Shown: positions 8,601 to 54,308 of the stretch, in pieces
Numbering within the stretch: the first letter of the stretch is position 1
Layout: each line of letters opens with the position of its first letter
Assembly (NCBI GenBank): GCA_046563655.1
Contig: CM102286.1
Location: 10,974,001 to 11,038,000, forward strand
DNA length: 64,000 bases
From: Yuukianura sp. NJ FZ-2021
Lineage: Eukaryota
Direction: 5' to 3'
Position numbers and translations under genes: made by a program
The notes under the pieces: model-generated
Database searches by the model: none
The model's input: only the letters and a program-made list of their open reading frames with translations
Told to the model about the DNA's origin: nothing

Positions 8601-11600
8601 TACCGCTGATTCTTCTCATTCCTACGTACGACATTTGAGAACAAACCAAACGCGTGGCACGACTCTGGCGTTGGCTGAATTATATTTTCTGCAAGTGATC
8701 TAACTTCACCTGCACTTCAATACTGTTTCCCAAAGTGGGAAATTTACCGCTGATTCTTCTCATTCCTGCGTACGACATTTGAGAACAAACCAAACGCGTG
8801 GCACGACTCTGGCGTTGACTCAAATAAATTTTAAGCGAGCGATCTAATTGGTCTGAACTTCCCTACTATTTTCCAAAGTGGGAAATTTACCGCTGATTCT
8901 TCTCATTCCTACGTACGACATTTAAGAACAAACCAAACGCGTGGCACGACTCTGGCGTTGGCTGAATTATATTTTCTGCAAGTGATCTAACTTCGCCTGC
9001 ACTTCAATACTGTTTCCCAAAGTGGGAAATTTACCGCTGATTCATCTCATTCGTACGTACGACATTTGAGAACAAACCAAACGCGTGGCACGACTCTGGC
9101 GTTGACTCAAATAAATTTTAAGCGAGCGATCTAACTTTGTCTGTACTTCCCTACTATTTTCCAAAGTGGGAAATTTACCGCTGATTCTTCTCATTCCTAC
9201 GTACGACATTTGAGAACAAACCAAACGCGTGGCACGACTCTGGCGTTGACTCAAATATATTTTAAGCGAGCGATCTAACTTGGTCTGCACTTCCCTACTA
9301 TTTTCCAAAGTGGGAAATTTGCCGCTGATTCTTCTCATTCGTACGTACGACATTTGAGAACAAACCAAACGCGTGGCACGACTCTGGCGTTGACTCAAAT
9401 AAATTTTAAGCGAGCGATCTAACTTGGTCTGCACTTCCCTACTATTTTCCAAAGTGGGAAATTTACCGCTGATTCTTCTCATTCGTACGTACGGCATTTG
9501 AGAACAAACCAAACGCGTGGCACGACTCTGGGGTTGACTCAAATATATTTTAAGCGAGCGATCTAACTTGGTCTGCACTTCCCTACTATTTTCCAAAATG
9601 GGAAATTTACCGCTGATTTTTCTCATTCGTACGTACGACATTTGAGAACAAACCAAACGCGCGGCACGACTCTGGCGTTGACTCAAATATATTTTAAGCG
9701 AGCGATCTAACTTGGTCTGCACTTCCCTACTATTTTCCAAAGTGGGAAATTTACCGCTGATTCTTCTCATTCCTACGTACGACATTTGAGAACAAACCAA
9801 ACGCGTGGCACGACTCTGGCGTTGACTCAAATAAATTTTAAGCGAGCGATCTAACTTGGTCTGCACTTCCCTACTATTTTCAAAAGTGGGAAATTTACCG
9901 CTGATTCTTCTCATTCCTACGTACGACATTTGAGAACAAACCAAACGCGTGGCACGACTCTGGCGTTTGCTGAATTATATTTTCTGCAAGTGATCTAACT
10001 TCACCTGCACTTCAATACTGTTTCCCAAAGTGGGAAATTTACCGCTGATTCTTCTCATTCCTGCGTACGACATTTGAGAACAAACCAAACGCGTGGCACG
10101 ACTCTGGCGTTGACTCAAATATATTTTAAGCGAGCGATCTAACTTGGTCTGCACTTCCCTACTATTTTCCAAAGTGGGAAATTCGCCGCTGATTCTTCTC
10201 ATTCGTACGTACGACATTTGAGAACAAACCAAACGCGCGGCACGACTCTGGCGTTGACTCAAATAAATTTTAAGCGAGCGATCTAACTTGGTCTGCACTT
10301 CCCTACTATTTTCCAAAGTGGGAAATTTACCGCTGATTCTTCTCATTCGTACGTACGACATTTGAGAACAAACCAAACGCGTGGCACGACTCTGGCGTTG
10401 GCTGAATTATATTTTCGGCAAGTGATCTAACTTCGCTTGCACTTCAATACTGTTTCCCAAAGTGGGAAATTTACCGCTGATTCTTCTCATTCCTGCGTAC
10501 GACATTTGAGAACAAACCAAACGCGTGGCACGACTCTGGCGTTGACTCAAATAAATTTTAAGCGAGCGATCTAACTTGGTCTGCACTTCCCTACTATTTT
10601 CCAAAGTGGGAAATTTGCCGCTGATTCTTCTCATTCCTGCGTACGACATTTAAGAACAAACCAAACGCGTGGCACGACTCTGGCTTTGACTCAAATAAAT
10701 TTTAAGCGAGCGATCTAACTTGGTCTGCACTTCCCTACTATTTTCCAAAGTGGGAAATTTACCGCTGATTCTTCTCATTCCTACGTACGACATTTGAGAA
10801 CAAACCAAACGCGTGGCACGACTCTGGCGTTGGCTGAATTATATTTTAAGCGAGCGATCTAACTTGGTCTGCACTTCCCTAGTATTTTCCAAAGTGGGAA
10901 ATTTGCCGCTGATTCTTCTCATTCCTGCGTACGACATTTGAGAACAAACCAAACGCGTGGCACGACTCTGGCGTTGGCTGAATTATATTTTCTGCAAGTG
11001 ATCTAACTTCGCCTGCACTTCAATACTGTTTCCCAAAGTGGGAAATTTACCGCTGATTCTTCTCATTCCTGCGTACGACATTTGAGAACAAACCAAACGC
11101 GTGGCACGACTCTGGCGTTGACTCAAATAAATTTTAAGCGAGTGATCTAACTTGGTCTGAACTTCCATACTATTTTCCAAAGTGGGAAATTTACCGCTGA
11201 TTCTTCTCATTCCTACGTACGACATTTGAGAACAAACCAAACGCGTGGCACGACTCTGGCGTTGGCTGAATTATATTTTCTGCAAGTGATCTAACTTCAC
11301 CTGCACTTCAATACTGTTTCCCAAAGTGGGAAATTTACCGCTGATTCTTCTCATTCCTGCGTACGACATTTGAGAACAAACCAAACGCGTGGCACGACTC
11401 TGGCGTTGACTCAAATAAATTTTAAGCGAGCGATCTAATTGGTCTGAACTTCCCTACTATTTTCCAAAGTGGGAAATTTACCGCTGATTCTTCTCATTCC
11501 TACGTACGACATTTAAGAACAAACCAAACGCGTGGCACGACTCTGGCGTTGGCTGAATTATATTTTCTGCAAGTGATCTAACTTCGCCTGCACTTCAATA

Positions 11601-14284
11601 CTGTTTCCCAAAGTGGGAAATTTACCGCTGATTCATCTCATTCCTGCGTACGACATTTGAGAACAAACCAAACGCGTGGCACGACTCTGGCGTTGACTCA
11701 AATAAATTTTAAGCGAGCGATCTAACTTCGTCTGAACTTCCATACTATTTTCCAAAGTGGGAAATTTACCGCTGATTCTTCTCATTCCTACGTACGACAT
11801 TTGAGAACAAACCAAACGCGTGGCACGACTCTGGCGTTTGCTGAATTATATTTTCTGCAAGTGATCTAACTTCACCTGCACTTCAATACTGTTTCCCAAA
11901 GTGGGAAATTTACCGCTGATTCTTCTCATTCCTGCGTACGACATTTGAGAACAAACCAAACGCGTGGCACGACTCTGGCTTTGACTCAAATAAATTTTAA
12001 GCGAGCGATCTAACTTGGTCTGCACTTCCCTACTATTTTCCAAAGTGGGAAATTTACCGCTGATTCTTCTCATTCCTACGTACGACATTTGAGAACAAAC
12101 CAAACGCGTGGCACGACTCTGGCGTTGGCTGAATTATATTTTCTGCAAGTGATCTAACTTCGCCTGCACTTCAATACTGTTTCCCAAAGTGGGAAATTTA
12201 CCGCTGATTCTTTTCATTCCTGCGTACGACATTTGAGAACAAACCAAACGCGTGGCACGACTCTGGCGTTGACTCAAATAAATTTTAAGTGAGCGATCTA
12301 ACTTGGTCTGCACTTCCCTACTATTTTGCAAAGTGGGAAATTTGCCGCTGATTCTTCTCATTCCTGCGTACGACATTTGAGAACAAACCAAACGCGTGGC
12401 ACGACTCTGGCTTTGACTCAAATAAATTTTAAGCGAGCGATCTAACTTCGTCTGAACTTCCATACTATTTTCCAAAGTGGGAAATTTACCGCTGATTCTT
12501 CTCATTCCTACGTACGACATTTGAGAACAAACCAAACGCGTGGCACGACTCTGGCGTTTGCTGAATTATATTTTCTGCAAGTGATCTAACTTCACCTGCA
12601 CTTCAATACTGTTTCCCAAAGTGGGAAATTTACCGCTGATTCTTCTCATTCCTGCGTACGACATTTGAGAACAAACCAAACGCGTGGCACGACTCTGGCT
12701 TTGACTCAAATAAATTTTAAGCGAGCGATCTAACTTGGTCTGCACTTCCCTACTATTTTCCAAAGTGGGAAATTTACCGCTGATTCTTCTCATTCCTACG
12801 TACGACATTTGAGAACAAACCAAACGCGTGGCACGACTCTGGCGTTGGCTGAATTATATTTTCTGCAAGTGATCTAACTTCGCCTGCACTTCAATACTGT
12901 TTCCCAAAATGGGAAATTTACCGCTGATTCTTCTCATTCCTGCGTACGACATTTGAGAACAAACCAAATGCGTGGCACGACTCTGGCGTTGGCTGAAATA
13001 TATTTTCTGCAAGTGATCGAACTTCACCTGCACTTCAATACTGTTTCCCAAAGTGGGAAATTTACCGCTGATTCTTCTCATTCCTACGTACGACATTTGA
13101 GAACAAACCAAACGCGTGGCACGACTCTGGCGTTGGCTGAATTATATTTTCTGCAAGTGATCTAACTTCGCCTGCACTTCAATACTGTTTCCCAAAATGG
13201 GAAATTTACCGCTGATTCTTCTCATTCCTGCGTACGACATTTGAGAACAAACCAAATGCGTGGCACGACTCTGGCGTTGGCTGAAATATATTTTCTGCAA
13301 GTGATCGAACTTCACCTGCACTTCAATACTGTTTCCCAAGGTGGGAAACTTAAAGCTGATTCTTCTCATTCATACGGGCGAAATTTGAGAACAAACCATC
13401 GGCATCCAAGGCGAAATTTGTGTACTTTTGTGTATTACATTTAAGTTTAACGATTTATGACTAATATGTTACCAGGTTTGCTTGCGTTCATTTAGCTTCA
13501 TTGTACTTACCATACATCCCGACATTTGACAAAGGTAACAGGAACGACTACCGAACAGTGTTCCGAAATCCAAGAGAAAGTGGATAATCCTCAACTCAAC
13601 TATATTACGTGTAAATTGTTTTACTAATTTTTGTAAAATTGCATCAAAAGGGAAATTATATCAAAAGAAAATTGTATCAAATCAAATGGATATTAAAGTT
13701 GTGATAGATGAGAGTTCAAAAAGCGATTTCTAAATCTTCGAAAAACGGACACCCTACTCAACGTATAAATGCCATCATTTCTTTTACATTTGTAAATGCA
13801 CCATGTGTTATTAAGTGCATAAGCTGTGGAGTCGAATATCGCTTGTTCAAAATGAAAATAAAAATTTGTTGCAAAGGCAAATTTGAACCCTGCCAAACAC
13901 TGTTTACCTATTAAGAATTTAAGCCGGAATTTCTAGCCTCTAATTAGGCTTAATTTAACAACGTGATTAAACTAACTATCAGAAAATGAGATCAAAACTT
14001 CGTTGTTAAAAAATATTTTGAGTATAATGCAGACCTAACACAAAATTTTGACGACTTAAGAAACAGCAACGCGAAGCAGCCGCATACTTTGGCGTTGTTA
14101 ATGTACGACTTTGAGTGCAATGTAGAGGTAGAGAAAACACTTGAGCCATACATACATAACCCCCCGAACGGGATTGGCCTCATGCTTCAGTGGAAGGGGT
14201 CCTAAAAAATGTGACAGACAGACAGACAAAGTCGTATCAATAGTCTTCTTCAGCACGTCGTAGACGTGCGTCTCCAGAAGACTA
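2694..14284 (-). mobile_element. Non-autonomous Helentron-like (HINE/DINE-type) element carrying an expanded central tandem repeat
   Basis: GTCTTCTGGAG (2730-2740) is the exact reverse complement of CTCCAGAAGAC (14272-14282). ATTGATACGGCTTT (2751-2764) pairs 13/14 with 14228-14241. Right end: inverted repeat TAGTCTTCT...AGAAGACTA around the hairpin GCACGTC-GTA-GACGTGC, (GACA)4 at 14213-14228, and an adjacent A/T run. Left end: small hairpin CTCAA-GGG-TTGAG at 2712-2724. The left boundary is approximate. Confidence 0.7.
3023..13398. repeat. 144-bp tandem (satellite-like) array, 72 units, two subtypes with higher-order structure
   Basis: GAACAAACC anchor recurs every 144 bp from 3023 to 13389 (10366 bp = 72x144 minus two 1-bp deletions at ~8848 and ~11438). 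Subtype A 'gactcaaataaattttaagcgagcgatc' and subtype B 'ggctgaattatattttctgcaagtgatc'. Confidence 0.98.
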
Positions 14285-27828: not shown

Positions 27829-29718
27829 TCAAAACGCCCGCGGTAGTGAACCAATAATTAATTTTTCTGCAATCCATGAAACAGTCGCACAGGAAAGCCC
27901 GACAATCCACAAGCAAAAAATCCCAAAGAAACTCCGGAGATTGAGTCCTTTGCTGCCAATTTCTACAAAATTTTGAATTTCCTTCAATTTTTTGGCTACT
28001 GTTGAGTTAGGTGTAGTTCTGAGATGTCGCGATCCTTCAATTCTCTTTCTACGTTCATCAGAAGCTATCCAATGCGCATGAAGTCCTGCTGCGCATGATC
28101 TCCCAATAATTGCTGAAAAGTCTGCGCGAATAGGGTAGCCTTTCCGAAAGGCCCACACAATTCCAATGGCATAGTCAGTGTCATCACTACGTCGAAATGC
28201 CATCGGACTTTGAGACGACACGAGTGACATATTTTCAGCAAGACTAAACTCTCCTGCTTCAATGTAGTCTAGGCAAGCAGAGGAATCAGTCATTAGGGCT
28301 AATGTGATACACTCCGCTGAAGAGTTGACAAGATGAATACGTTTAAAAATGGCTTGATGAGTGGGCTTTTTTGAATTTTTGGTGTAATGATACACCCCAC
28401 CGCCATAGAATCGGAAGAACAGCTTATAGTTGGAGAATGCAAGTTCGGGATGTGTCTTCGGAAGGTTCACGACATCTTCCGGATTCGATAAGGATGAAAT
28501 TAGTTTTGAGCGATAGGCGGTTCCTATGAGAAGGGAAAAGGCGGCCCAAAGACAAAGAAGGGCGCGAAACTGTTTTCGCGGCCACTGAATTAGGCTAGTT
28601 GCTTGATCAAGCAGGATTTTCAAAACTCCGGCCAATGCATTTGAGACTTTTTTAAAATTTGCACCACGACGAGCCGAGATGGGATTGCATGGGCTCAAGC
28701 GGTAGTTGTAATGAAAGAGCACATGCGCAATGACCAAACTGCAGTAAATGAAAGTTGTGAACAAGATGGCGCCCCATAAAGTAGGATTGAATGGGCGGTA
28801 GACTGCGCTCCAGGAAAATCCTTTCGGAGAAACTCTAACGTAGAACACACGACGGTAGATATCGTAGGTCGTACTGTAGTCAACGATGACGTCACGCCAA
28901 TCCAGTGCTCCAATCATAACTCCAAATTCGGCTTTCCCGCTGACAATTTCTCCGATTGCTCCATTCCAAGTTCCATTTTTCAATTTCCACCCAGACCCTT
29001 CTTTACTCGAAGAAAGTCGCAACGTAAAATTGAATTGGGTTGCAGAGAAACGCAACATTTCAAAGATACTCCCTTGACCGTGAATCAAATTTTCGCGGTC
29101 GTCGTTCTGAAACCGTAATCTCTCTGGAGTTGGAGTACTTGACACTAAAATTGTTTTACCACTCAAATGACCTCCGCAGAGTCGTCCATTATCCAAGCAA
29201 CTGTGGTTCAAAATTTGAAAATTTCCTTCCGCCCCAACCGTTACCCGCCAACGGTATCGAAAATGGGACCAAAACGTGTCGCTTTTAGCCCCACACATAT
29301 CGTCTCTTGTCAATACTTGAACAAATTGATCTACTTCTTTCCGAATAAGTCGTCTGAGCAATAGCATACTTATAAAATTTTCTGCGTATTCGCAATTGGA
29401 TAGTGGTGATGAAGGTGTCAGCACAATGGAACAGAAACCGCTGTACTTTTTGTTGAAAAAACGATATGAGTTGATGACTTCAGCTTCGGTAAATTCTCGA
29501 GCAAAGTCTGCAATTGAAGTATTTGAACTTGGAAATTCTTTGATCAATATTTTTGTTACTAATTTAAGGTCAATGACCGCAAGGTGAACTGCGTCAAAAT
29601 CTCCATGTGTGGTAACAATCCACGTGTTATTACAAGTGGAGTCGAATTGAAATGGAAAGGCATGTACAAATACGCAGAGTGGAAACAAATTAAGCCAATG
29701 AATGTTTTGCCACTGCAT
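27829..29718 (-). CDS. Divergent ionotropic receptor (IR/iGluR family), intronless
   Basis: Signal-like MQWQNIHWLNLFPLCVFVHA. S1 GWKLKNGTWNGAIGEIVSGKAEFG, RDVIVDYS. M1 YRPFNPTLWGAIL. M3 LWAAFSLLIGTAYRSKLISSL. C-terminal TM LNLRSFFGIFCLW. Confidence 0.9.
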   Translation of the reverse strand: MQWQNIHWLNLFPLCVFVHAFPFQFDSTCNNTWIVTTHGDFDAVHLAVIDLKLVTKILIKEFPSSNTSIADFAREFTEAEVINSYRFFNKKYSGFCSIVLTPSSPLSNCEYAENFISMLLLRRLIRKEVDQFVQVLTRDDMCGAKSDTFWSHFRYRWRVTVGAEGNFQILNHSCLDNGRLCGGHLSGKTILVSSTPTPERLRFQNDDRENLIHGQGSIFEMLRFSATQFNFTLRLSSSKEGSGWKLKNGTWNGAIGEIVSGKAEFGVMIGALDWRDVIVDYSTTYDIYRRVFYVRVSPKGFSWSAVYRPFNPTLWGAILFTTFIYCSLVIAHVLFHYNYRLSPCNPISARRGANFKKVSNALAGVLKILLDQATSLIQWPRKQFRALLCLWAAFSLLIGTAYRSKLISSLSNPEDVVNLPKTHPELAFSNYKLFFRFYGGGVYHYTKNSKKPTHQAIFKRIHLVNSSAECITLALMTDSSACLDYIEAGEFSLAENMSLVSSQSPMAFRRSDDTDYAIGIVWAFRKGYPIRADFSAIIGRSCAAGLHAHWIASDERRKRIEGSRHLRTTPNSTVAKKLKEIQNFVEIGSKGLNLRSFFGIFCLWIVGLSCATVSWIAEKLIIGSLPRAF

Positions 29719-30966
29719 ATCTTGACTTACTAACAAATAAAAGCAAAATTTTTTCTGAAACTTTTGTCTAGTAGCCGGACACTTATCAAAAGAGTTATTA
29801 TAGTTATAGTTGACAGTTGTCAATTCCGATAGTAACAAAATTACACGGAAAACTTTCAATTTTATCGTACACGTAATTGTTGAGTTGTTACAGCACAACC
29901 CAAAAGACACGCTCCGCAAGCCAAAGTGACAGATTGTCAATTGACAACCCCAAACGGAATCGATTATCGCAATGCATTCAATTCACTGGCATAAACAGCT
30001 TTACCATTTTCCAACACTACTCAATTAATCTATTGTACTAATGGGCTCCTGTCATTCCGCAATCGATTATAGTTGCAGACTATATAGTTCGTTTATTCTT
30101 AAGATTTTGAAAAATCAACAACATTTCTTCTCTCATATAAAGTACCGTGGTCGAAGGGACTTCCCCTCGATCCGAAATTCGAACTTCCACGTGGAAACGT
30201 GGAATTCAAAAAAAAAAAATTTATTTTTAAACTTAAAGCTGGACGAAAGTCCTTTCGGTTGATGGGAGTGATCCCATTTTTGCGTGTTGGGTTGCGCAAT
30301 ACTTCCGAGGTCTTGGGAACAAAAAATTTCCAAAGTTGGACTTGATATTTTCAAACAATTCGTGTCTCTTACCTTATGGTGGATACGGTTTTTGAATTTC
30401 ACGCGAACGCTACAATGAAACCCACCATAACGTAATTCTACCATTCATGGCGACATTTTGGTGTTAGACCCGAGGCATCAGGTTCTCTTGAAAAATTTTA
30501 AACTTTGGTATGAACTCATACAATAATTCATGTTTCTCAAATATAGGTTCTTCGATTTAAAAATTTTTAAGATTGAATTATGAAGTTTTGGAAAAATATA
30601 AAATTAAAAAAACGAAGCTGAGACGAACTGAAATTCTAAAACCTCCAAAAAATTCTGAAAACAATGGTGGCAATTTTTGAATCCGTTACAATGGGAATGT
30701 TTAGTTTGAAAGTTTGCAGGCGATCTTTTAAAAAGAAATAGTCGTTATAGCTAGAGTTATTATTACTAGGACGATTGAACGTGCATCGGGCTAAGCCCCA
30801 GCAAGCATACGAATCATACTGTAACTCATCTATATGGAATATTAAATGAATCATAAAAAATTTAGGGATTTTTTAATTAGGGATTAAATTAGGGATTTAA
30901 AAAAAAAACTTTATTTAGAAAAAACTCTTTTGGCTGGAGTTTTGTATACGAAAACTCTACTACCAT

Positions 30967-34288: not shown

Positions 34289-36891
34289 TTAGTAAACTGA
34301 AACTCCAACATTGTTGCAAACTTCCTCTGATTCTATTGGTGGAAATTGGTAGACTTGTTTTGCAATTTCTTCATCTTCGATAAAGGTCATGCCCAGTCCA
34401 GCTTCCAAATGCTGATTGAATAGAACAAAACATTGGTTGAAATGTAATTTTTTTTTAAATTCAGTCAAGCATACCCAATTAATGTGACAGTGGAAGAACC
34501 AGGCGCCAGGGTTGTCTGTAGTGTACGTAAATACTGCCCATGAATTTCCCAGGGTAAAAGTTGTATCTCGTCTCACTCCATCTGGCGTCAACTTTGATTC
34601 GTCTCTGCTAGAAATGAATGCTCCTGCTTCGGCAGCTCCAGTTCCAAGCACCCAAAAAGAATGGCCTTCAAATTATGAAAAATTATTCTTGTACTTTTCA
34701 AACTTTGAAAAGGAAATTCTAACAAATTCCTTCTGTAGCAGTATCTTACCGTGGAGGTGCCAGGGATGCGGCAGCGGATGATAATTGTTAATGACAACGC
34801 GAATCACCTAAAAATTAAAATTCAAATGTAGATAAAAGTGGCATGAACTATTTACAGAAATTTACTTCTCGTTGCTTTGGGGTGCGGATGGGTCTTGCCG
34901 AGCTTGGAATTTGTTGGTTGTTGATTAGTTGAAAAAGAACTGGGCTTTTGTTCACACTGGCCGGAACAAACGGTTGACCATTCATGCACATGCGCGAAGG
35001 ACTTCCAGCGATTGGACAGTCTGTTACATTGATGGTAATGAGTCGGTCATATTTCGTAGGCGCTTTTCCTTCTACTCCAAATTGCAATGGTGGGCATTGC
35101 ATGTCGTCGAGCAAAGTAGCTGTAGAAGCACTGACAGGAGTAGATGTTGGAAGTCGAGTCTTTTTGACCAACTGCGCATGCTCTTCATCCAGTTTCTTTT
35201 GTAAATTAGTATCAATTTGTGGCGGTTTTTTTGGAAAGAATTTGTCCAAATCCTCTATTGTGTCGGGAGTGATGCCACCAGCTTGGATGATATCGTCCCA
35301 CGGAACGTCTTGGAAATCGGGTCGACCTTGAGCCACTCCGGAAGGAGGGTCATCACGCCCAGGACGTACTGCCCCAGTTGTTACCGACGAAGATGATGAT
35401 GCACTGGCTGCTCCCGATGCCGAAGCAGTGGCTCGACCTTGACGTTTACCGCCACCCTTTCCTTTTGCGTTACCTTTGTTGTCACGTATAGGGTTAGCAT
35501 AGTTGAGTTACACTTTATCATTTTTATTGTTACTTTTAGTGGTTACCTTTTGGTTTAGTTGTAGGTTTCGGTGTAGGGTTTGCAGGGTTTGGCTGGGGAT
35601 TGTCGTTTGACGCAGTTGAATTGCTTGTGTTCGACGTGTACCGCAAAACAGCTCGACCCAAAAGTCCAGCTGATCCTACCGGTATCCCAGAAATTCGGAT
35701 CCAATACTCGTTGCGGGGTTGATCCATCGTAACCAGGATTGAGTACCTCTGTGCTGCTAGAATCGGAATGACATCTACCGCTGGACTTTTGAAAGTGTCA
35801 ACTCCATCCGTTTCAATGACAACCATCTTGTGCCCATCTATGCTAAAGTTGTAGGTTCTTGCGCCAGAGGAATTCAAAATTCGAAACCGGTAGCGTTTTC
35901 CACGCGTGACTTCAACTACAGCTGGACCTTGCATTGTACTGTTACAAGTTTGACCTTTCTCAACCGTTGAACAGTTGAACGTACCGCGAGCGTTGATGAG
36001 TGACGAGTTTGTGTCAGGAAAAATTCCTTGCTTTAGGTACACTTCGCTGACATCCTTAGCTGGACGGTGAATCCAATCGTTGATGGAGATTAGCCGTTCA
36101 TCGTCGTACGAATTTTGCCAACATTCCGCTGGCGAGTTTTTGATAATCAGGAAACCCCAAGCTCCGTCGACGTACTGGTAGGAATGATGAGAATGGTACC
36201 TGAAACCATGGTAAAAAAAAAACGGCGCTAGTTTTGAATTTTAGAATTGTAGTTTTGAAGTTGTTTTTACCAGTATGTCCCAGCTTGGAACACTTGAAAC
36301 TTGTAAATCATAGATGTGTGTTTTATAACAGGGCATTGCGTGATGGACTGTGGACCGTCATAGAATGGTGACAAGTTTTGTTGAATCCCGTGCCAGTGGA
36401 TAGACGTTGGTTCATCTTTGTCTGGAATGTCATTCGTCACACGTACCAGCATGGTTTTACCTACTGTGCATCGCAGGACAGGCCCAGGGAATTGTCCATT
36501 GAACCCAATTATTCGTTTCTGGACCCCATCGGGTGAACCATTGATGTATTGCATACGTATATCATAAATGCAGAGGTCATCTGACTCTGAAATGTCATAA
36601 AAACGCGCCACTGTATCAAAATTCGGTTTCTAATATTTGATGTTTCAACCTACCGAAACCGATAGTGTTGTTGTCGCTAGCATTGACGATACTGACACTG
36701 CCAGTGGTGGTAACGTTCTTGCTTGGAGCAGATAGACTTGGTACCTTGATGTTGCTCAAGCTGTGGTTCAGCTTGGCCCAGCTTTTCCAAAATTCAGTGT
36801 TGCGTGCTTGCCCGGAAGTGGAAGACTGAAAAAATTTAGCAGTTGTCGTCGAAAACAAGAGGAAAACCAGAACAGTTGAACGGAACACCAT
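34289..36891 (-). CDS. Secreted three-domain multicopper oxidase (laccase-like)
   Basis: Signal peptide plus all four Cu-binding motifs across introns: SIHWHG, GTYW|YHSH, HPWHLHG|H, DNPGAWFFHCHINW|HLEAGL. Low-complexity linker between domains 2 and 3. Confidence 0.93.
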
Positions 36892-41985: not shown

Positions 41986-44900
41986 TTACATACATTGCGG
42001 AACTGCCGGAGCTTGGCCTTCTGACTCTGAAGCTAAATCATCCTTAACAATATGCTTGTTAGTGGTCGTCGCAACCATTTCAGCATTCATGAGGTTCTCC
42101 AAGTGAGCTGTAAGTTTTCTAACTGTCTGGTTTTCCTGTATAGCGCCAACAGTCACTTGGCTTTTTTCGAAAATGCTTTGAAAACGATTGCGTAGTTCAA
42201 TGGTCATTAGAGAGTCGACTCCAAACGCTGAAAAGAGTTTATCTGGATCCAATTGCTCGGCATCATCAACCCGAAGCGTCGCCTTCAACAACATGCAAAC
42301 AAATTCTTCAATTTTGTTTCGTCTTTCCTGTGCATCGGTTGTTTCTTTGAATTTCGTTCGGGTGAATTTTTCCCCAACATTTGTAGCCGTCACCGAATTC
42401 AAATTGTTAGAATTCAGTTCATCCAAATAATGGCCCAGGTTCACGACCTTTTTTAATATAGCCCAGTCGAAGACATCTACCACGGTACACCGAAGTTTAT
42501 GTTCCTCCATGACCATTTGAAGAGCAGCCAACCCTTGACTTGGAGAGAATGTAATGACTCCGTTCCGATTTCCTTTATAAACTTTTGCATCCGCTGCGCC
42601 TCCAACCTAAAACAAAAATGTTTATGTAATGTTTGTAATATTTTCATTTTTTTCGTTTCTTGTAAATTCATTTCAAAATCCAACGAGTGAACCAGCCCCC
42701 TGCGTTCAGCCCCCTTAGCAACCAACGCCAGCTTTTGTTTGTGACGTCACTCGTTGAAAAATACCGGAATTCGGGGAATAATGATGGCATCCTATAGAAA
42801 CCCATATATTGTTTGATGTTTAGATACGCGCCTCGGATAATAAGCTGACGATTACGGTATTTTTCAACGAGTGACGTCATAAAAAATGCCGTGGTAACCT
42901 AACAAACTTTCTGTTCGCACTACCTGTAGTTATTCTATTTACCTTGGGAGTGAACTAGAAACGCCAGTCAATGCAGAAATACTATTTATAGTAATACCTT
43001 CTGCCACGCGCCGAAGTTGATGCTGCATGCCGGGAGACCCATTGAGTGTCGATAGTGTGCAAATGAATCTAAGAATCCACAAGCGGCTGTATGGTTGCTG
43101 TTTCCTAGACTGCCAAAATTTGATGCTATACTTGAAAACATAACGAAGAATTCAAGACCACAGTCGAGAGTCAACTTGTGCAAATTGATGCACCCTTGAA
43201 TTTTTGGTTGGAAAACCATTTCGAATTTTTCCCACGACAAATTTTGTATGATCCCGGATGCGTACACTCCTGCTGCGTGCATAATTCCGCGAAGCGGCGG
43301 CAAATTTAAACTCTTTAAAGATTCGAAAAGTGCTTCTGCTTCTTTGTAGATACCAATATTTGTTTGAACTGCCAAAGTTCGACATCCATTTTTGTTCATA
43401 CCCTTCAAAGCTTCTTGGGCTTCAACTGAAGGTTTCCTGCGTCCAACAAGCACTAGGTTGGTGGCCCCCAATTTTATCATCCACTTGGCCACTTCCATAC
43501 CGATCCCACCCAACCCACCGGTGATAATGTACGTACTCTGTGAATTGAAAAGACGTTTTTCAAAATGGACGCGGCCTTCCGGGGAAATTTTGGTTTCTGG
43601 AATGGTGATCACAACTTTCCCAATGTGTTTTGCTCCTTGAAAAAAAGAGAAAGCTTGCTGAATTTTGTCTATTGAAAATGTTTGGTGTGGAAGACTGGTG
43701 TAAATGCCATTTTTCAATTCGGTTTCAATTTTTCTCATAAGATGGCAGAATTTCTCGTTGATCTGCAACATGCCATGAGATACGTCTACTAGAAAATATT
43801 TTACATCTGGACGTATTGTCTTCACTTCGTCTTCGGTCCAGGTATTTACTTTCCCAATTTCAACAAATCGCCCATTTTGAGCACAAGCTCTGAGAGACGC
43901 TTCTTTGAAGCCAGAACCAGTGAGCGAGTTAAGGACAACATTCACTCCAGCTCCATATGTGTCTTTCATTATTTCGTCCCCAAAATCCGTAGTTCTGGAG
44001 TGGTAGACATGTTGAATTCCAATTGATCTTAGGTACGCTCGTTTCCTTTTGCTGCCTGCCGTGGCAAATATTTCCGCGCCAAGACGTTTGGCCATTTGAA
44101 TCGCCGCGAGGCCAACCCCTCCTGTGGCTACATGTATCAGAACTCGCTCCCTTTCATCTAGATTTGCAAGTTCTTCGAGTGCATAAAAACATGTGAGAAA
44201 TGCAACTGGAATTGTAGCTGCCGAGGTAAATGTCATTTCGGGCGGTTTTCGTACCAAACACCGAGAGGAGACAGTGAGGTGAGAAGCCAATCCATTCCCA
44301 GGCACAAAACCAAAGACAGCGTCACCGAGGTTAAATTTGGTGCAAGTGGGACCAACGGCTGAAACGATTCCAGCTATTTCTAACCCTGGTTCTTGAAGAT
44401 CAGTTATCGAATCCACAAATCCTTCTGGTTGAAGGATGAGAAACAAATCTCTGAAGTTTAGTCCCGTTGCTCGTACAGCTACTTCAACTTCGTCTCCCAC
44501 CGGATCCATTCTCGAAGCAGGAGAAATTTCCAAATCATTCAGACTTTGGCTAACTGGCTTCGTTACTTGAAAGCAAGTCGAATTTGGAAACGCAAGTGCA
44601 CGCGTTGAATTTTTATCAAGTATTAATCTTTGGTGGAAAATTGTGTCTTGCCGTATTGCTCTGAACACTTCATCGCTTTCCCTGGACCAGATCATCGCAA
44701 AAGTCTCTTCTACTTCTCGTTCAAAATCGACTTCATCCTGTGCAAGGTCAATGACCTTGAGTTTAAAATCTCTGTGTTCGTTTGCAAAAGATCTAATGAA
44801 GGCTGCAGCCGTTCCAGCAACTGGGTTTCCTGGTCCAGTGTCTCCAACGTAATAAACTCCACGCGTCACCAAAACTAATTTTGATTTTGTAGTTTCGTTT

Positions 44901-47900
44901 TCCTGGGCTGAAGAAAGTTTTTGGCAAAGTTCGAAAAATTCTCTGCATTTTTGTTGACTTCCGTCAGAATGTTCATGAGTCTCAGTCCATAGAAAAAGCA
45001 CTCCTTCTAACATTTCATACATGTCAATTCCTGTATCGTAGGAAACGACTTTACGTCCATAATATGACAACTTCGAAGTCAGGTTTGATTTCAAAAAAGA
45101 ACAATCTCCATGTACAATCCACGTTGATTTATATGGAGCTGAGAGGACCATAGTAGGCAGAGCTGAAGCCAATTTATGTCCAGCTACGACGCCAAAGTGT
45201 TCATCAAATGCTGAGAATGTTCTTGTTCCACCAAATCCAGCTCTCTCGAATGCAATCTTCCATTTTTCTGTAGTCAAAAGTGGTGAACCAGTTCTACCAT
45301 CCGTTGACTTCCACCATTCTTTCAGGAATCCGAACGATAAATTGACGTACGTCAAATCCTTAAACATTTCACCCAATACAATAATGCCTCCTGGTCGCAG
45401 AACAATGTTTAAATTTTTCAGAGTTTGTACAATATCTGCTGTTGCATGAATTACGTTGGCAGCAATGATAATGTCAAATTCGTCTGGAGGAAAGCCTTGA
45501 CTCAGAGGATCTTCCTCAATGTTGAACAATGCAAAGGTTACGCCCTTTTTGAATTTCTTTTCCGCTTCATTCAGAAAAGAAGGTGAAATGTCTGTGAAAG
45601 TGTACTGGCATGAGACCTTGAGCTGCGTGAGTCCTTCAAAAATCAAACTGCAACAAATTCCTGATCCTGCGCCAACCTCCAAAATTTTAAAGGCTCCATT
45701 TCCGGTTGACGAGTTGCTAATGCAGTCCAGAACCAATGAGGTTGGCAGGATACTAATTTCTTTGAATCCTTCTCCTAATAATTTTTTTCAAATTCAAATT
45801 AATTCAATTCAAATTAATTAATCAAATCAATTCAAATTCAGTTTTACAAATGAATTCAAATGTAACATTGTTTTCGAGATAGAACAGGTTGATTTCTTTT
45901 AGACTTTGATTTTATAATAAAAAAGAGAAAAAAAAAGGAGTTTCAATTACCTTCAGAATAAAATCTCAAAGCACCAATTTCAGACGAGTTTTCTGTAAAG
46001 AGGTATGAAGTAGGAGCAATTTTCCCTTGAAAAACGCTTGGAAGATGACGGCCACATCGTTTTGCAAATTGAGAAATCACACTTTCCTTTTTGTTTGTCA
46101 GTTCGAAATGATGTCCGAATCCATCCGAAATTTCTTTCTCTAATTCTTCCGAGGTGGGAAGTTTTTGTAACACTTCATAAGTTCCATCTTTAGTTTTTTG
46201 CAAATAGGAAATCTTAGCTAAAATTTCCATGACCTTCCCAGACTTCACAATTCCCAATCCGGGAGCCAACTTTGCCCAATCACAAATATTTAGGTTTTCT
46301 CCAACGTCGGGCCAAGGCCATTCAGATTCAGTAATTCCCTTAATGAGGAACATCGTAAATAATTTGTCGATGATTTGAAAGCTACGCAATGTTGCGACCT
46401 CTTTATCGGAAATAGATTTTAGCGTGTGTTTCATGAATCCGGATAGTTTTATCTCAATTAACTTTGACTCGACTTGACTTCGTGTAATCCTGTTTGTTGG
46501 ACGCCAAACTTCTTCCAAAATTGTCGGTAATAATTCAGTTTCTTGACATAATGTTTGCAAGAATCGGAATGGTGTCGTGCTAATAAATTTGACTCCTTCC
46601 ATTGTTGTCAAAATGTTTCCTAAATCATTTGCCAACGTTATAGTACGTGCTCCTTCTGAAATTGTAAGGTACGCAAAAACTTTTCGTGTAAATGTCCCCG
46701 AGTAGAAACTGAATTTTTTGATTGCAACTGGCAACTGCAGTCTGCTGGCTTTATCAGTTTCTTTGTCAGTCAACATTGCATGAATAACAGAAGTTTGGAG
46801 CATTGCGTCGAGAACGATTGGATGACAAATGTAAGAATTAGAATCTTCTGCAGGAATTTCAATTTCCGCTAAAACAGCATCCTGTGCAACCCAAGCTCGA
46901 GAAATTGATCGAAATCTCTTTCCAAACTGGTATCCGACCTCCACCAGTTTATCATACGTTGTGTGCATTGACTCCAAACAGTCTAATGTTTGCTGTATGG
47001 TTTGTAAGTCAATAGACGTGATGCCTGTGAGACGACTTGGAGTAATTGTCGCTATTGCGTGTCGTTTCCACTGCTGTGGAGTGTCACGAGATTGCTCGTG
47101 GATTGTCACTTCGAACTTGAGTCTTTCTTTGTCAATTGATTGCACAATAGTTTGAATTTGACAGGATCTGTTCAGTTCTAGGGCAGCCTCGATTGTGAAG
47201 TTTTCAATGCAAAATGGAACTCGAACCTTTCCGCCCTGCAAAACGTGATACCCGGCCGCCATTATGGTTTCAAGGAAAGCCGCTCCAGGAAAAACAATTC
47301 TCTCCGCAATACGATGATCACCGAGAAATTTAAGATTTCTGGTTGATAGAACTTGAGTGAAGATGTGTGCTGGAAATGGAGTCGGTAGTGGCGCTCCAAG
47401 TGTTGGGTGTAGAGACATGGGATGCTGTGAGCCAACGTCAACATCTTCTCGTTGAAACCAAAATTTTTGACGTTGGAATTGATACGTAGGAAGAGTCAGT
47501 TTACTAGCGCCAGAAAACCAATTCGTCCAGGAAATCTCAGCACCAGCTACAAACATCTTGGCCAGTGAATTCAAAATAGAAGCCAAGTCATCTTCGCTTC
47601 TGCGTAGTGAAGGACAAAATGCGTCCTCTTCCGAACCCTGCAGGTTTGACATAGTCAAGGCTAACAAAGTCGGTTGGGTACCGATTTCGACAAAGACTTT
47701 TGGGGAAGGGACAAGTCTTTCTAGTTGGATTACAGCGTCACGAAATCTAACCCTGTCTCGCAAATGACGCGCCCAGTATTTGGAAGAAAGTTCACCCAAT
47801 TCTAATTTTCGCCCAAATGTACTGGAGATGTAGCAACAATTGAAGTCGTGTGTTTTAACTTCCGCCGCGATTTGTTCGAATTCTATTGATATTGGATCCA

Positions 47901-50900
47901 TAAGTTGAGAATGAAAAGCGTGAGAAGTTTTCAAAAAGTTTGCTTGGAGTCCGTTGGATTTACAAAAGTTAGCAAACTTTTCCACGTTATCTGAGGCGCC
48001 AGACACCACGACTTGCTCGTCGGAATTCTCGGCTGCAACATCAATCCAAGAATCTGCTGAGGATTGAATGAATTCTTCAATCAACTTGCGGACATCTTCT
48101 GGCGAATTTTTTAAAGCCAACATTTTCCCGGCTTCGAGTGAATGGACGAGTTTACTTCTGCTAGCAACTAGTTTCATCCCATCTTCAAGTGACAGCACGC
48201 CAGCGCAAACTGCCGCACAGAATTCACCCGCGCTGTGACCTAGGACAACGTCAGGGTGAATTCCAAAAGAGTTCCACAGTTGAACCAGTGCAAACTGAAC
48301 TGAAAAAATGGCCGGTTGGCAGTAGATGGTTTTGTCCAACAAGGCAGCATCTCCCCACAGAACTTCCTTCAGTGAACACATCAAATGATTCTGGAAAAGT
48401 ATTTCACATTTGTCCAGCGCCGTTCGAAAAACTGGCGAATCATTGTAAATGCTTTTCGCCATTCCGAAGTACTGTGACCCTTGACCTGTGAATAGAAAAA
48501 CCACTTTCGGTTTCTGCTGCACCGCCTTTCCTTTGATGAAACTTCTCTGTTTTAATTTTGACACGAGTTGCTCCGTATTATTGACTACAAGTGCAATCCG
48601 GTTGGCCATGCTTGCCCTTCCAGTATTTAGAGTATATGCGATGTCATACAATGTAAGTTCTGGATTCTGCTCAAAATGGGAAATGTGTTTTTCACAAAGA
48701 GATCCCAAGGCTTCTTCGGATTTGGCAGAAACCTGTATCATTTGTAACAAGTTTGAATTGGGTTCAAGATTTTTAGGTGTGCGCTTCGGTGGCTCTTGAA
48801 CGATAATATGAACGTTGGCTCCACTCATGCCGCTCGAACTAGTGGCTGCAATCCGCCTTTCTTGTTTCCATTCTGTCACTTCCAATGGAATAATTCCCGG
48901 AATTTTGTCGAGATGGATTTTGGGATTTAAATTTTTAAAGTGGAGGTGCGGTGGTATCTGTTTGTGTTTGAGACAAAGCAGAATTTTTATAAGTCCAGCA
49001 ATTCCTGAGCATCCTTCAGTGTGTCCAATGTTGGTTTTCACAGAACTGACAAGGAGCGGTTCTGCCCGATTTTCGGAATAAACTTGTTCAATTGCTCCCA
49101 TTTCCGCTGGATCTGAAATAATGTGTATAAAACTTATTCAAAAGCTCGTTAAAGTTACAGCCTTCGAGGTATTTTTGTTTCCGTTAACAAGGTTAATTAA
49201 GAAGCAGTGCCATTTACTTGGCTTCGTTAGACTACATTTGGGTTTCCTTTGGTACTAATAGAGATTTAAATATGCTACATCGTATATGCTCGGTTATTCC
49301 GCCTAACCTAATAAATAGGTACAATCTCTTGCAATTAAGAAAAAATTAAACTCCATTGTTGTAAAGATTTCCATTGTTATGGTTATGGGGAAGGGTATGG
49401 GGGCAAGTGACTATAGGGTCATGGGGGAAGGATATAGGGGAGAGGGTGGGAGGAGGGGGGTTCGGAAGCGGGGGTGGATGAGATGACGTCATTATGTCAG
49501 AAACGTTTTACGCAGATGCAATTGCTGATGAGGGCAGCCATTTTCAAAACCCGAGCATTCCCATGGAGGTACATGAAAACGTACATGGAGAATTAGGAAA
49601 GTACATAATTTCGCTACCTCCTGCTGGCGTTCCTGTTCCATGTGGCTCGATGAGAGTAACATCGCGAGGCTGAATGCAAGCATCAGTCAACGCCTCCCGG
49701 ATTACCCTTTTCATGGCATAAAGATTTGCAGTTCCGTAGCTTGATGGCCCGTTGTTATTTAACCCAATTCCGCGAATTACGCCGAGAATATTATGACCTT
49801 CGCGAATGGCGTCAGGCAGGGGTCGCAGCACTACTGATGCAATTCCTTCAGCCCGAGCATAACCATCGGCTCTAGAACGGAAAAGTTACTTTAAGAAGTA
49901 TGATTTTATAATTTTAGCTGTTATGATTCCTCACCTCGCGTCGAACGATTTGCACTTGAAATCTTTTGCAAAGGTTGGCGCGTCCGAAATTGTTCCGCCA
50001 CCAATTGGATTAAGGCTGCGAAGTACTAGGTTTACTCCAGCGGCAATTGCAATTTTGGAGCTTCCATTGCGCAAGTTTTGGCAAGCAAGGTACAAAGCTG
50101 TTCCGCTACTCGAACAACCGGTTCTATAAAATAAAAAATATACGTGTTAAATATTTCGTTTTTAAGAATTCACAGTACGAGCAAAACGGGATAATTTTTG
50201 TATTTAGAGGTTCTCACTCTGTACAGTAGTTTGGTCCATGAAGTCCAAGCAAATTAGAAATTCGTCCAGAGGTTGTGCTGAAAGTATTTCCCAGGTAGAC
50301 TCGAATGTAGTCGTCTGGATCTAGTCCATACTCTGGAAACCAACTCTTGTACTCAGATTGCCAAATACCTAAATATACTCCCGTGTCACCTCCACGCAAG
50401 TCGTCTGGATTGATGGCAGAGTTTTCGAGACTCTCCCAAATCACTTCCAGAAGAAGACGTTGCTGAGGATCCAAAAACGGTGCCTCACGAGCACTAATTC
50501 CAAAAAATTTAGCATCAAATTCATCTATTGGGCATTTCAAAAATCCCGCCTGAAAATTTTTTGTATCGTCGTTTAGGTGGCGTGATCTATTGGATGGGAA
50601 CGGTCCAATGGGATTTCGACCACTGATGAGCAACTCCCAAAGTTCATCGGCATCATTTGCTCCAGGAAATCTGCAACTCATGCCCACCACTGCAATTGCA
50701 TTTTTCAAATCCTCCCGGTGGTCCTCTCGTTCAGTACCATTTACCGTGACGTGTCCATTTTTATTTAGTTGATACCTTTCTGCGGATTTCAAAAGATACG
50801 TTTTTGTACCGTCGTCCTGTTTAAAAAAAAGTTTGAAATGTGTTATTCAACTTATTAGTTACTTTGTTAGATAGTATATTTTGGCAATGAATTTCGTTTG

Positions 50901-53347
50901 AAGCTGGAGTAAAAAGTGTTACTATATTTTACTTGTATTTGCTGAACTTGTGGCATAATTTCGGTTTCAAATGTAGCCATCCAATTTTGTTTCATTTCTT
51001 CACAATAAAATATCTTGCACGAAGACGGTGCAGTAGCAGCATTGTTATCTTGCGAGGCATAAGAGTCTTCATTGCTGGACAAACCTTGCATGTCTCTATC
51101 AAATTTATTTCAAATAAAAATTTTAAAATAGTTGTTACTAAATTGAAGCTGTGCTTCTATAAATGTTTCCATCTTTACGAGTTTTTTCCATCCACTTACA
51201 TCAGCTTTTCTGAGGCAGACTCAAGGATTTGATGTCTTGAATTGCGAAGGACAGAGGAATATTTAGAGCTCAAAATTTCCATCGCATGCCCTATCACAAA
51301 GAGGGAACCTTAAATTTACTTCCAGTTATTAAGTACTACTTAAATTTCGCTACTTTGCTAACGTTATGGTTTGAGGTTGTCTGTCTGGCCAGCCATTTGT
51401 CCGTCCGTCGACGGCAATTATCTCGGAAACGCTCAACAATTCCGGGAACTTTTTTCATTAATGAACATCGGGTCGCGCATAGGGTTCGATGCTGAATACA
51501 TTCCGGCGTGCGAACTCTTTCCGGGTCAAAGGTCAGGGTCAACAATTTTTCCCCCCAGTAACATGGAAAGTGACCCATACAAAAGTTGTTCATGCATTGA
51601 GATGAACTCTTGTGTTCAGCGTGTGACCACAAGTGACCACCTCCGTGTCAAACGTCAGTAATTTTATCGTTCATAAACATAATGCAGCGCCATCTCTTGC
51701 TTCGCTACTTTAGACTCCGGTTACGACCGGATTTATTAAATAGCGAAGGCTATTTGATAATAAGATTCGTGGGCGTCCGTTTCTCCTTGAAAACATCAGA
51801 ACAATTATCCCTGGAACCATTATTGGAAAAATTTCAACTGCGTCACCATGTCATGACCCGGACCTATTACGGAATATCACCAGATTGATGACTTTTTACT
51901 AGGTCAAAGGTTAAGGTCATGCACCTTTCCAATATAAAACCGGGAAAGGCAACCCCCCGCTCCCACGAAAAGTGTGGCAACCCACACTCCCCCATGGGGA
52001 TGCCGATTAGAGGCGGGAACCCACCACGCGCTCTAAGAGTTCCCGCCGTGCACTACTACCTCCGCAGTATACTACCTGGGTTAAAGGTCAGTGGGTCCTT
52101 CGCTACTTACGTACCCTCGGTTTATTACAACCAGAACTTGTTTTCTTCTATTTTTGAACGTAGGCTTACCTCGCAGATTTTTTTGGCTTAGTTTCACCAG
52201 TTGATCAAATTCCTCTAGACTCGGTTTGAACACGACAACCTTCGATGAAATTTTTATACCGCAGTCAGCAATGTCTTCAACAACAGCCGAGAACGACGGA
52301 TGCAAAAACAGTTCATCCGAATTCTTGTGCATCTGTAAGACAGCAATGTCCATACCAAATCATTAAAGATAACTACCAAATGAAAAATTCTCTGCTTAAA
52401 ATTAATTCTGGTTTGTTGATTCAAGTATGGTTAGTTAGGCATTGCTGAAAATAAAGGTTCGCTTGAAATCATAGTTGTCACATCCCGTAAAGACTGGAGG
52501 ACTTACGTAGGTCATAGGGTGAACGTAGACACACTTAATCCAATTGCGCAAACTCCAAAGCCAAAACACGCCATGCTCTTTGTTCCCCACTTCGCTTGAC
52601 TCAAACCGCAAAACCGTATCAAATTCACGATTTAAGAGTTTTCTGAAATTCAAATAAAAATCCAATTTTGAAGGCGACGTTTGGCTGAAATCAAACTGAA
52701 CGGAGCTCTTTTGTGGTAAGATCAGTACGTAACATATATGCCGAGTTTGACTCCAAATCTAAACCGAATGGAATACTTACAGCGTCACCGACCTCATTTT
52801 CTATATTATCGTAGTTAAGTTTTATGTTCTTTAAGTATAGGTAGTAAAAAAAAAAAGAAAAAGTTGGCAACAATATTCCTTTCGCTTTAAACAGCTTTAA
52901 AAGTTCTGACAACGTAATTCTATCAAGTCATAATTATAGTATTCACTATTAGAGCAGTTTTTTGTTGTTGCAAGCGGTGTTTATAAGTTTAATTATCAGC
53001 ATAAAGTCAAGGAAAGAAATTAACTTGACCTATTAGTTCTGTTGTTAAGCATGCGTAACTTTCAAGCATTTTCATTTTTGCTACTCTTCCTCACAGACAA
53101 AAAAACATGGTTTTACCTTATCTCATTTGAAACGTCTTCCGAGATTACAATGACCAAGGGTTTAGTTGTCACCGAATTTCGGATTGATCTAGCGAGCACC
53201 AACGCTCCCCAAGCTTCTTCCTCATTGCTCGCCAACGTCACCCAACACTCGTCTTCTACATGCCAAATAAATACCGATAAAAAATGACAATCTATAAAAA
53301 TGCATAAAGTGTATGCTTTATAGAATTTTTTGGTAACTACCCTTCAT
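41986..53347 (-). CDS. Glycogenin-like (GT8) domain fused to a reducing type I polyketide synthase: GT8-KS-AT-DH-MT-ER-KR-ACP, ~2,770 aa
   Basis: Exons 53347-53341, 53255-53117, 52642-52507, 52332-52170, 51290(or 51308)-51200, 51095-50933, 50816-50218, 50123-49935, 49871-49618, 49112-45951, 45774-42998, 42606-41986 join in one frame. KS TGCSSS/EPHGTGT/NIGHTE; AT GHSAG/HAFH; DH DHRIAERIVFPG/LDAMLQ; MT LEVGAGSG; ER GGVGLAA; KR TGGLGGIG; ACP GVDSL; no TE. PKS identity is near certain; the fusion is inferred. Confidence 0.85.
42691..42946 (-). mobile_element. ~256-bp interspersed non-autonomous repeat, copy 1 (PKS last intron)
   Basis: Near-identical inverted copy at 62575-62830. Internal 25-bp inverted repeat TGACGTCACTCGTTGAAAAATACCG. 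Confidence 0.85.
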
Positions 53348-54308
53348 CGTTTTAGAGTTGAAGAACAAAATTGAGAATGACTTCTGATTATATGAAGGCA
53401 CCCTTCTCTATTGTGTTTTTAAGTTGCTAAACGGTTAAGTTTTGTTGTAAGAATCGTGATCTCAAAAATTGTTTGTGGAAGAAACTAATCCTCGCTGAAG
53501 ATTTCGTGAATTTATAGTCGGGCGTAAATTGAGACGCAGCGTCGCTACAAAACATTGAGTTTTTTGAGTAATTTGAGTGACTTTATTTTTCGAGATACAG
53601 CGAGTGGTTTGCGAAACCAGTCTCAAAACCAGTTATCAATTAATATGTCTTCAACTTCTATAATATCGATTTAAAGCAGGTTTCACAGGACTTTTTTCTC
53701 GTTTTCAAAATGATTGGCACTCACACCGACAATTTGGTTCTTCGGCTTGGAAATTCCAAAATTGACTTAAGACGCGTGCATTGCCATTGTAACCTTGCAT
53801 CCAGACCCTCGAATTTGTACATAAAGTGGTCGTGAAGACATCTGGTATCTACCATTAGAATGTATTTATTTAGCGCATATTGAAATGTATACGTAAATCT
53901 ACCTAAATGATAACAATCAACTATATAAAAAAAATAAAGACATTTTCAATTATGAAGCAAGTTTTTGTGTTTGTTCTAAGTTAGGTTACGTATAGCTAAT
54001 GTATGCTATTGGTTAGTGTGAGATGTGGGAGGTACCCAATTAAAACAACTTGAAATTGAAAACTTTAATTTACAAAATGAATTTTTTATTACTTTAGACT
54101 TCACGTTGATTAAACCAAAGACGACAAATGTATAGTGTCAATTTTAAGCCCTACAATTACGTAAGTGAGTCCAGAATTTAAATTATTGTATTAATTTATT
54201 CCTGAGCCAACTGGACATCACCAACTTCAAGTTCCTGGAAAGCAGGTTTGATAAACCTTTTTGCGACTTAACTGGGCAATAAGAATGTTGTGTTGGGATT
54301 TGTTGTAC

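Follow-up and report, generated by a model that had tools for sequence, protein, structure and literature searches.

A glycogenin-derived, probably non-catalytic domain at the predicted N-terminus of a highly reducing polyketide synthase in Yuukianura sp.

Locus and predicted gene structure

The window analyzed here, i.e. the whole stretch of 64,000 nucleotides at positions 10,974,001 to 11,038,000 (forward strand) of contig CM102286.1 from Yuukianura sp. NJ FZ-2021 (assembly GCA_046563655.1), carries on its minus strand a gene predicted to encode a highly reducing type I polyketide synthase (PKS) with the domain order KS-AT-DH-MT-ER-KR-ACP. Upstream of the ketosynthase (KS) part lie five exons that would encode a domain of glycogenin ancestry (CAZy family GT8, GT-A fold), and this domain would be translated as the N-terminus of the synthase. 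An earlier note on this DNA had drawn attention to one of these exons, in which the catalytic DXD motif of the glycosyltransferase is missing. The reading of the domain as a pseudoenzyme is well supported by the sequence comparisons given below. Throughout, a second fusion of the same kind found on a metagenome contig (L001) and a 221-aa database protein (P0143) serve for comparison, and coordinates are those of the window. The first six exons join in frame on the minus strand from 53347 to 50218, with GT..AG introns in phases 1, 2, 0, 1 and 0 and no stop codon, so that the intact frame and splice sites claimed in the earlier note hold for these six exons.

53341..53347, minus strand: exon 1, ATG AAG G, four bases beyond the start codon, with phase-1 donor GTAGTT
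53117..53255, minus strand: exon 2, N-terminal strand-helix-strand of the glycogenin-like domain, ..DECWVTLASNEEEAWGALVLARSIRNSVTTKPLVIVISEDVSNEI..; 50% identity to exon 2 of L001
52507..52642, minus strand: exon 3, ending in the strand on which DXD lies in glycogenin; 44% identity to exon 3 of L001
52170..52332, minus strand: exon 4, glycogenin residues ~109-153, with NSG reading SSK
50933..51093, minus strand: exon 5, the degenerate C-terminal part, DMQGLSSNEDSYASQDNNAATAPSSCKIFYCEEMKQNWMATFETEIMPQVQQIQ
50218..50816, minus strand: exon 6, the ~45-aa linker and the N-terminal part of KS (Pfam PF00109, E 2.5e-41), with donor GA|GTGAGA

The spliced product consists of a 202-aa glycogenin-like domain and a linker of about 45 aa, followed by the KS motif AIAVVGMSCRFPG. 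In alignments, the methionine of exon 1 falls on Met1 of both P0143 and human glycogenin-1, and L001 shares the 7-base first exon. No methionine is present in exon 6 upstream of the KS motif, and this exon is separated from exon 5 by an intron of 116 nt; retention of this intron would lead to a stop 22 codons after exon 5 (open reading frame, ORF, 50867-51109). The acceptor of exon 5 was picked because the frame is kept with no other. In L001 three exons correspond to exon 5, which falls ~27 aa short of them and matches L001 in its last 22 aa only (E 0.004). Missed exons were sought in the 1076-nt intron between exons 4 and 5, where only the known C-terminal helix was found. This intron (51094-52169) also contains two copies of a 29-nt element of the GGTCAAAGGT type, 378 nt apart, and G+C-rich repeat-like sequence. 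A search of positions 50800-53600 against Rfam found nothing.

The second fusion was identified by scanning metagenome contigs with P0029, the database protein closest to the body of the synthase. Four loci were obtained, and only in L001 were the glycogenin-like exons and KS both matched by tblastn. L001 is an intact fusion of eight exons with seven GT..AG introns and no stop codon, and its N-terminal domain comprises 229 aa; its first four introns share the phases of those in the window. The other three loci (L002, L003 and L004, from the same metagenome) are relatives of the PKS body with 81%, 51% and 46% identity to P0029, and on their contigs there was no match to a model of the N-terminal (glycogenin-like plus KS) part. 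The organism behind L001 thus has a family of these synthases.

Relationship to glycogenin

When compared with PDB sequences, exon 2 alone gave 19 matches, all of them glycogenin-1 or -2 (best E 9e-4, residues 3-45). With a two-sequence profile of exon 4 (window and L001), 19 of the 20 matches were glycogenins (best E 1.4e-3, residues 109-153). The matches of exons 2, 3 and 4 to glycogenin are collinear. Searching proteins of 80-2000 aa with exon 2 found nothing, and with the profile of exon 3 an exhaustive HMMER search (1.84 billion representative proteins, E up to 0.001) returned four proteins. Two of these are real matches, namely P0143 (E 1.2e-6) and the 67-aa P0144; the other two, P0145 and P0146, were discarded as spurious because they are repeat proteins. 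P0143 is a record without a PKS part, which the protein Atlas puts among PF01501 clusters with a score of 0.96. The spliced domain of the window matches P0143 with an E value of 8e-33 (40.5% identity over 148 aa) and that of L001 matches it with 1.8e-44; P0143 itself matches human glycogenin-1 over residues 1-202 (1.5e-28).

As judged by sequence comparison, homology of the domain to glycogenin is secure for about its first 150 residues, because the path from the window through P0143 (8e-33) to glycogenin-1 (1.5e-28) agrees with the exon-wise matches to PDB entries. These residues are collinear with the N-terminal part of glycogenin-1 and -2 (GYG1 and GYG2, family GT8; PDB 3q4s, 7zbn, 1ll2 and 4ueg), with which the domain shares Met1, an FVTL-type first strand, a GALVL helix and the KCV[FY] strand. 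Unlike in glycogenin, there is no free C-terminal tail and the chain continues into the PKS.

State of the active site

On the minus strand, exon 3 runs from 52642 to 52507, preceded by the acceptor ...gaatttcag and followed by the donor gtaagt. Its translation is KLLNREFDTVLRFESSEVGNKEHGVFWLWSLRNWIKCVYVHPMTY, which ends with KCVYVHPMTY. The codons CAC CCT ATG at 52521-52513 (minus strand) encode His-Pro-Met and sit where glycogenin has Asp102-Ala-Asp104; coordinates and letters are exactly those given in the earlier note for the exon devoid of DXD. A two-sequence profile of exon 3 (window and L001, HMMER) places KCVY-l-d-P-t-t on KCVFMDADT of glycogenin-1, ungapped from KCV[FY] onwards. In the numbering of the native chain 7zbn_E, for which the aligned stretch is residues 85-105, V-H-P-M-T of the window falls on M101-D102-A103-D104-T105, i.e. 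His on D102, Pro on A103 and Met on D104. In the search of this profile against PDB, seven of ten matches were glycogenin-1 (E 0.61, residues 50-72 and 85-105). Taken by itself, this match is weak. The placement of HPM on DXD is secured by the collinear exons, by the bridging protein P0143 and by the KCV[FY] anchor, which is invariant directly before the motif in all family members.

The other positions were mapped from glycogenin-1 to P0143 and then through the alignments of P0143 with the window and L001. K86, N133 and D160/D163 have active-site roles in glycogenin. The residues found are as follows.

DXD (102-104), which in glycogenin binds Mn2+ and the UDP diphosphate: HPM in the window, DPT in L001, NSN in P0143, DSN in P0144
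K86: Val in the window, Lys in L001, P0143 and P0144
N133-S134-G135: S-S-K in the window, Y-P-Q in L001, N-T-D in P0143, not covered in P0144
H212, the third Mn2+ ligand: Tyr in the window (less certain alignment), Ala in L001, Arg in P0143, not covered in P0144

The motif is thus absent from all four family members and is replaced by different residues in each, its context being L-D-P-T-C in L001, L-N-S-N-S in P0143 and L-D-S-N-S in P0144. In the window the D160-Q164 stretch is either deleted or reads R-D-M-Q, depending on gap placement. There is no counterpart in the window of the arm that carries the self-glucosylated acceptor Tyr195, and P0143 has a 7-residue gap at 189-195. In addition, ~13 glycogenin residues (73-85) are absent from exon 3. 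That further signatures are altered, as had been proposed earlier, was borne out: T85-K86 reads G-V, N133-S134-G135 reads S-S-K, and GDQG has become R-D-M-Q-G or is deleted, again by gap placement.

In the published work consulted, the DxD motif of glycogenin-1 is described as essential for Mn2+ coordination, and human glycogenin-1 with the patient variant p.Asp102His is still expressed but cannot autoglucosylate (PMC5203857). The window carries exactly a His at the position of D102, as in human D102H. In Gat1, a relative of glycogenin, Mn2+ is reported to be coordinated by the two DxD aspartates together with the UDP phosphates and a conserved His (bioRxiv 10.1101/764241). That the three metal ligands and most other residues checked are lost, with replacements that are inconsistent between members, argues against retained glycosyl transfer by the domain of the window. 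The statement in the earlier note that GT-A enzymes need DXD is, however, too general, since the GT6a enzyme of Bacteroides ovatus (BoGT6a), a bacterial GT6 with NXN, and the GT14 enzyme C2GnT-L are described as active without metal (PMC3961637). The NSN of P0143 has the NXN pattern of metal-independent bacterial GT6, and P0143 also is without the Tyr195 segment.

Selective constraint on the domain

Between the window and L001 the proportion of synonymous sites that differ (pS) is 0.71-0.86 and, stated as one value, 0.75, i.e. saturated. Therefore pS and the corresponding proportion for nonsynonymous sites (pN) were used, and no dN/dS ratio. pN is 0.30 for exon 2, 0.42 for exon 3 and 0.39 for exon 4, then 0.54 for exon 5, 0.47 for the linker and 0.23 for KS. 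The chance of a stop-free run of 202 random codons is 6e-5. Judged from these values, exons 2-4 are under purifying selection, as pN is far below the saturated pS and the frame is open at a divergence where neutral sequence would have broken. The domain is conserved rather than in decay: L001 is an intact fusion too, and neutral decay is not seen in exons 2-4. Core elements of the domain are conserved, namely WVTLA, LVLARSIR, ISExVS, RF, LWxW and KCV[FY]. The conservation of these hydrophobic elements argues for a folded module.

Homology to an enzyme, loss of catalytic residues and purifying selection, which define a pseudoenzyme domain, are thus all found here, inactivity being judged by sequence. 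The glycogenin-like GT8 pseudo-enzyme of the earlier note stands as regards its homology to glycogenin, its conservation and the replacement of all three Mn2+ ligands; for the third of them, the change of H212 to Tyr depends on a less certain alignment.

Polyketide synthase body and neighboring genes

Downstream of exon 6 the gene continues on the minus strand with five further exons.

49935..50123, minus strand: exon 7, with the KS active-site cysteine, TGCSSS
49618..49871, minus strand: exon 8, C-terminal part of KS, HGTGT
45943..49112, minus strand: exon 9, rest of KS, AT and DH (Pfam); the lower bound is the ORF limit
42998..45787, minus strand: exon 10, MT, ER and KR (Pfam); the upper bound is the ORF limit; donor AAG|GTATTA
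41986..42606, minus strand: exon 11, ACP (PF00550, GVDSLM) and the stop codon

The Pfam families found in the PKS are PF00109, PF02801, PF00698, PF21089/PF14765, PF08242, PF00107, PF08659 and PF00550, and the active-site motifs TGCSSS, HGTGT and GVDSLM (DSL) are all in place. Exon 9 is collinear with residues 1-1044 of P0029 (43.8% identity) and exon 10 with its residues 1075-2007 (50.9%), without breaks. Judged from its motifs and this unbroken collinearity, the synthase looks functional. The homologue search with the 1064-aa ORF was dominated by multimodular bacterial PKSs, and only P0029 was close; a protein search with the DH region gave 22 distant matches and no orthologue. The ACP exon ends (41986-41995) with ...CAATGTATGTAA, where GTATGT immediately precedes the stop codon and may be a splice donor leading to an additional exon. 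In the intron between KR and ACP, a 36-nt inverted repeat (42735-42886; 92% complementary, copies 80 nt apart), built on GACGTCAC...GTGACGTC, looks like a small insertion of the MITE (miniature inverted-repeat transposable element) type.

Elsewhere in the window, long ORFs recur every ~3 kb at 4936-12565 (minus strand), with diffuse low-complexity Pfam matches only. Three ORFs of 143 aa in this region, at 6952-7383, 9975-10406 and 12134-12565 (minus strand), may belong to a large tandemly repeated coding array. Neighboring ORFs at 27829-29982, 34848-36240 and 2-919 (minus strand) resemble an ionotropic glutamate receptor (weak Pfam matches, below the cut-off), a multicopper oxidase and a C2H2 zinc-finger protein, respectively. 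Together with the spliceosomal introns, these neighbors indicate that the genome is that of an animal.

Discussion

We propose that the domain encoded by the first exons would no longer bind Mn2+ and UDP-glucose and would no longer glucosylate itself, and that it would be kept as a folded, non-catalytic module. Its most likely roles would be those of an N-terminal dimerization or scaffold element on the dimeric KS, or of a docking surface for a partner. We favor this reading, a pseudoenzyme domain that may serve as scaffold, dimerization element or docking surface before the dimeric KS, as a fairly probable one. Modular PKSs have N-terminal docking or dimerization elements directly before the dimeric KS, which are non-catalytic and are short coiled coils. 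In contrast to these, the domain of the window has ~200 aa, derives from a GT-A protein and is no short coiled coil. Loss of catalytic function with a structural role is reported for other GT-A proteins, from plants. The GT8 protein GAUT7 is inactive and anchors GAUT1, and in IRX9 (GT43), to which a structural role is assigned, GLN replaces DxD (PMC4132061). Both resemble the module proposed here in being GT-A members that lack catalytic residues and act structurally. However, they are separate Golgi proteins of polysaccharide synthase complexes, whereas the domain of the window is fused to a megasynthase of cytosolic type. The metal-independent enzymes GT6a and C2GnT-L (GT14) also have the GT-A fold without DXD (PMC3961637), but they are active and keep the remaining catalytic and diphosphate-binding residues, the counterparts of which are nearly all changed in the window. 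Gat1 and glycogenin are stable dimers. The dimer is the same in both, with a dissociation constant of 0.85 uM given for glycogenin (bioRxiv 10.1101/764241). A prediction of a two-copy complex of P0143 gave no answer (score 0.00) and bears neither way. A more specific proposal is that the domain could be a GT-A derived N-terminal clamp, a new PKS accessory module of springtail-type animal synthases that was recruited from the glycogenin of the host when the gene was domesticated. Such a clamp would dimerize KS or dock a partner or starter-supplying protein. We regard this version as doubtful.

Several points weigh against the proposal of a non-catalytic module. Exon 3 alone gave no match to PDB sequences, and exons 4 and 5 alone gave one match each, neither of them glycogenin. 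Pfam PF01501 (Glyco_transf_8), at E values up to 1, had no match in the eight single-exon ORFs or in P0143 and P0144, these exons being short. We infer the GT-A fold with sequence homology as the sole basis, and the dimerization, scaffold or docking role would follow by analogy alone. The exons were joined by coordinates in a script, with splicing predicted from genomic DNA alone. The family comparison is based on four sequences, a small number. An Asn is kept in the window at the position of N12, and perhaps one Asp near D160/D163. The loss of DXD is by itself no proof of inactivity, as GT6 enzymes with NXN and the GT14 family are active without metal, and P0143 reads NSN. Finally, exon 5, the last third of the domain, is weakly conserved (pN 0.54) and ~27 aa shorter than its counterpart in L001, so that the C-terminal third of the fold may be gone in the window.

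The erosion and shortening of this last third would also suit an alternative in which the domain is a leftover of exon capture: the PKS would have taken the 5' exons of a host glycogenin, with promoter, start codon and first intron, and the encoded segment would have no function of its own, being conserved just enough to fold and not to harm the synthase. The alignment of the start methionine and first residues with Met1 of glycogenin and P0143, the 7-base first exon common to the window and L001, and active-site residues that differ in every member (HPM, DPT, NSN and DSN) could all be explained in this way, and springtail PKS genes are indeed reported to be horizontally acquired (PMC5490193). 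However, pN of exons 2-3 (0.30-0.42) does not exceed the KS value (0.23) by much while synonymous sites are saturated, and no member deviates in the hydrophobic core motifs, so that the constraint is stronger than a passive leader would require. We therefore judge a mere leftover to be unlikely. The domain could also still be an enzyme or a ligand sensor, either a metal-independent GT-A glycosyltransferase or a module that binds UDP or CoA and glycosylates or primes something for the synthase. A selected active site would show consistent replacements, but D102, D104, K86, N133, G135 and H212 are all replaced in the window, and inconsistently between members. Moreover, D102H alone is reported to abolish the activity of glycogenin (PMC5203857), and the acceptor Tyr arm is missing. 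An enzyme or sensor thus seems very unlikely, even though some GT-A enzymes do without DXD (GT14, and BoGT6a with its NXN; PMC3961637), P0143 reads NSN, the Lys at the position of K86 is kept in L001, P0143 and P0144, and conservation is highest in the N-terminal half, which binds the nucleotide in glycogenin.

Alternatively, the glycogenin-like exons could form a small gene or pseudogene of their own, located upstream of the PKS, in which case the fusion would be an artefact of the gene model; or the locus as a whole could be dying. Splicing is predicted from DNA, retention of the intron after exon 5 would give a stand-alone protein, and P0143, with its 221 aa, is recorded without any PKS part. 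Nevertheless, all intron phases fit, the KS exon lacks its own start codon and lies only 116 nt from exon 5, L001 shows the same fusion independently, and the active-site motifs of the PKS are intact. An artefact or a decaying gene is accordingly given a very low probability.

Type I PKS genes are known from springtails. In Folsomia candida 30 type I PKS clusters are reported, many of them called horizontally acquired (PMC5490193). Like the gene described here, springtail type I PKS genes lie in an animal genome and have introns (PMC5490193; one is named in PMC10764717). The term 'glycogenin' occurs in neither of these two papers, and the survey of animal PKSs covers KS domains only. Searches of full texts revealed no account of a PKS that carries a glycogenin or GT8 domain, and the probable non-catalytic role of such a domain is described in no paper searched. 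The architectures of type I PKSs have been catalogued in detail, yet none of the papers searched shows a glycogenin-derived N-terminal domain.

If the domain is needed for folding, dimerization or docking, it must be kept when such animal synthases are expressed to find their products. The four members, with DSN, NSN, DPT and HPM at the position of DXD, would form a natural series of active-site decay on one fold. If our reading of a folded, non-catalytic module is true, the domain would clearly exemplify how a housekeeping enzyme can become a non-catalytic part of a megasynthase.

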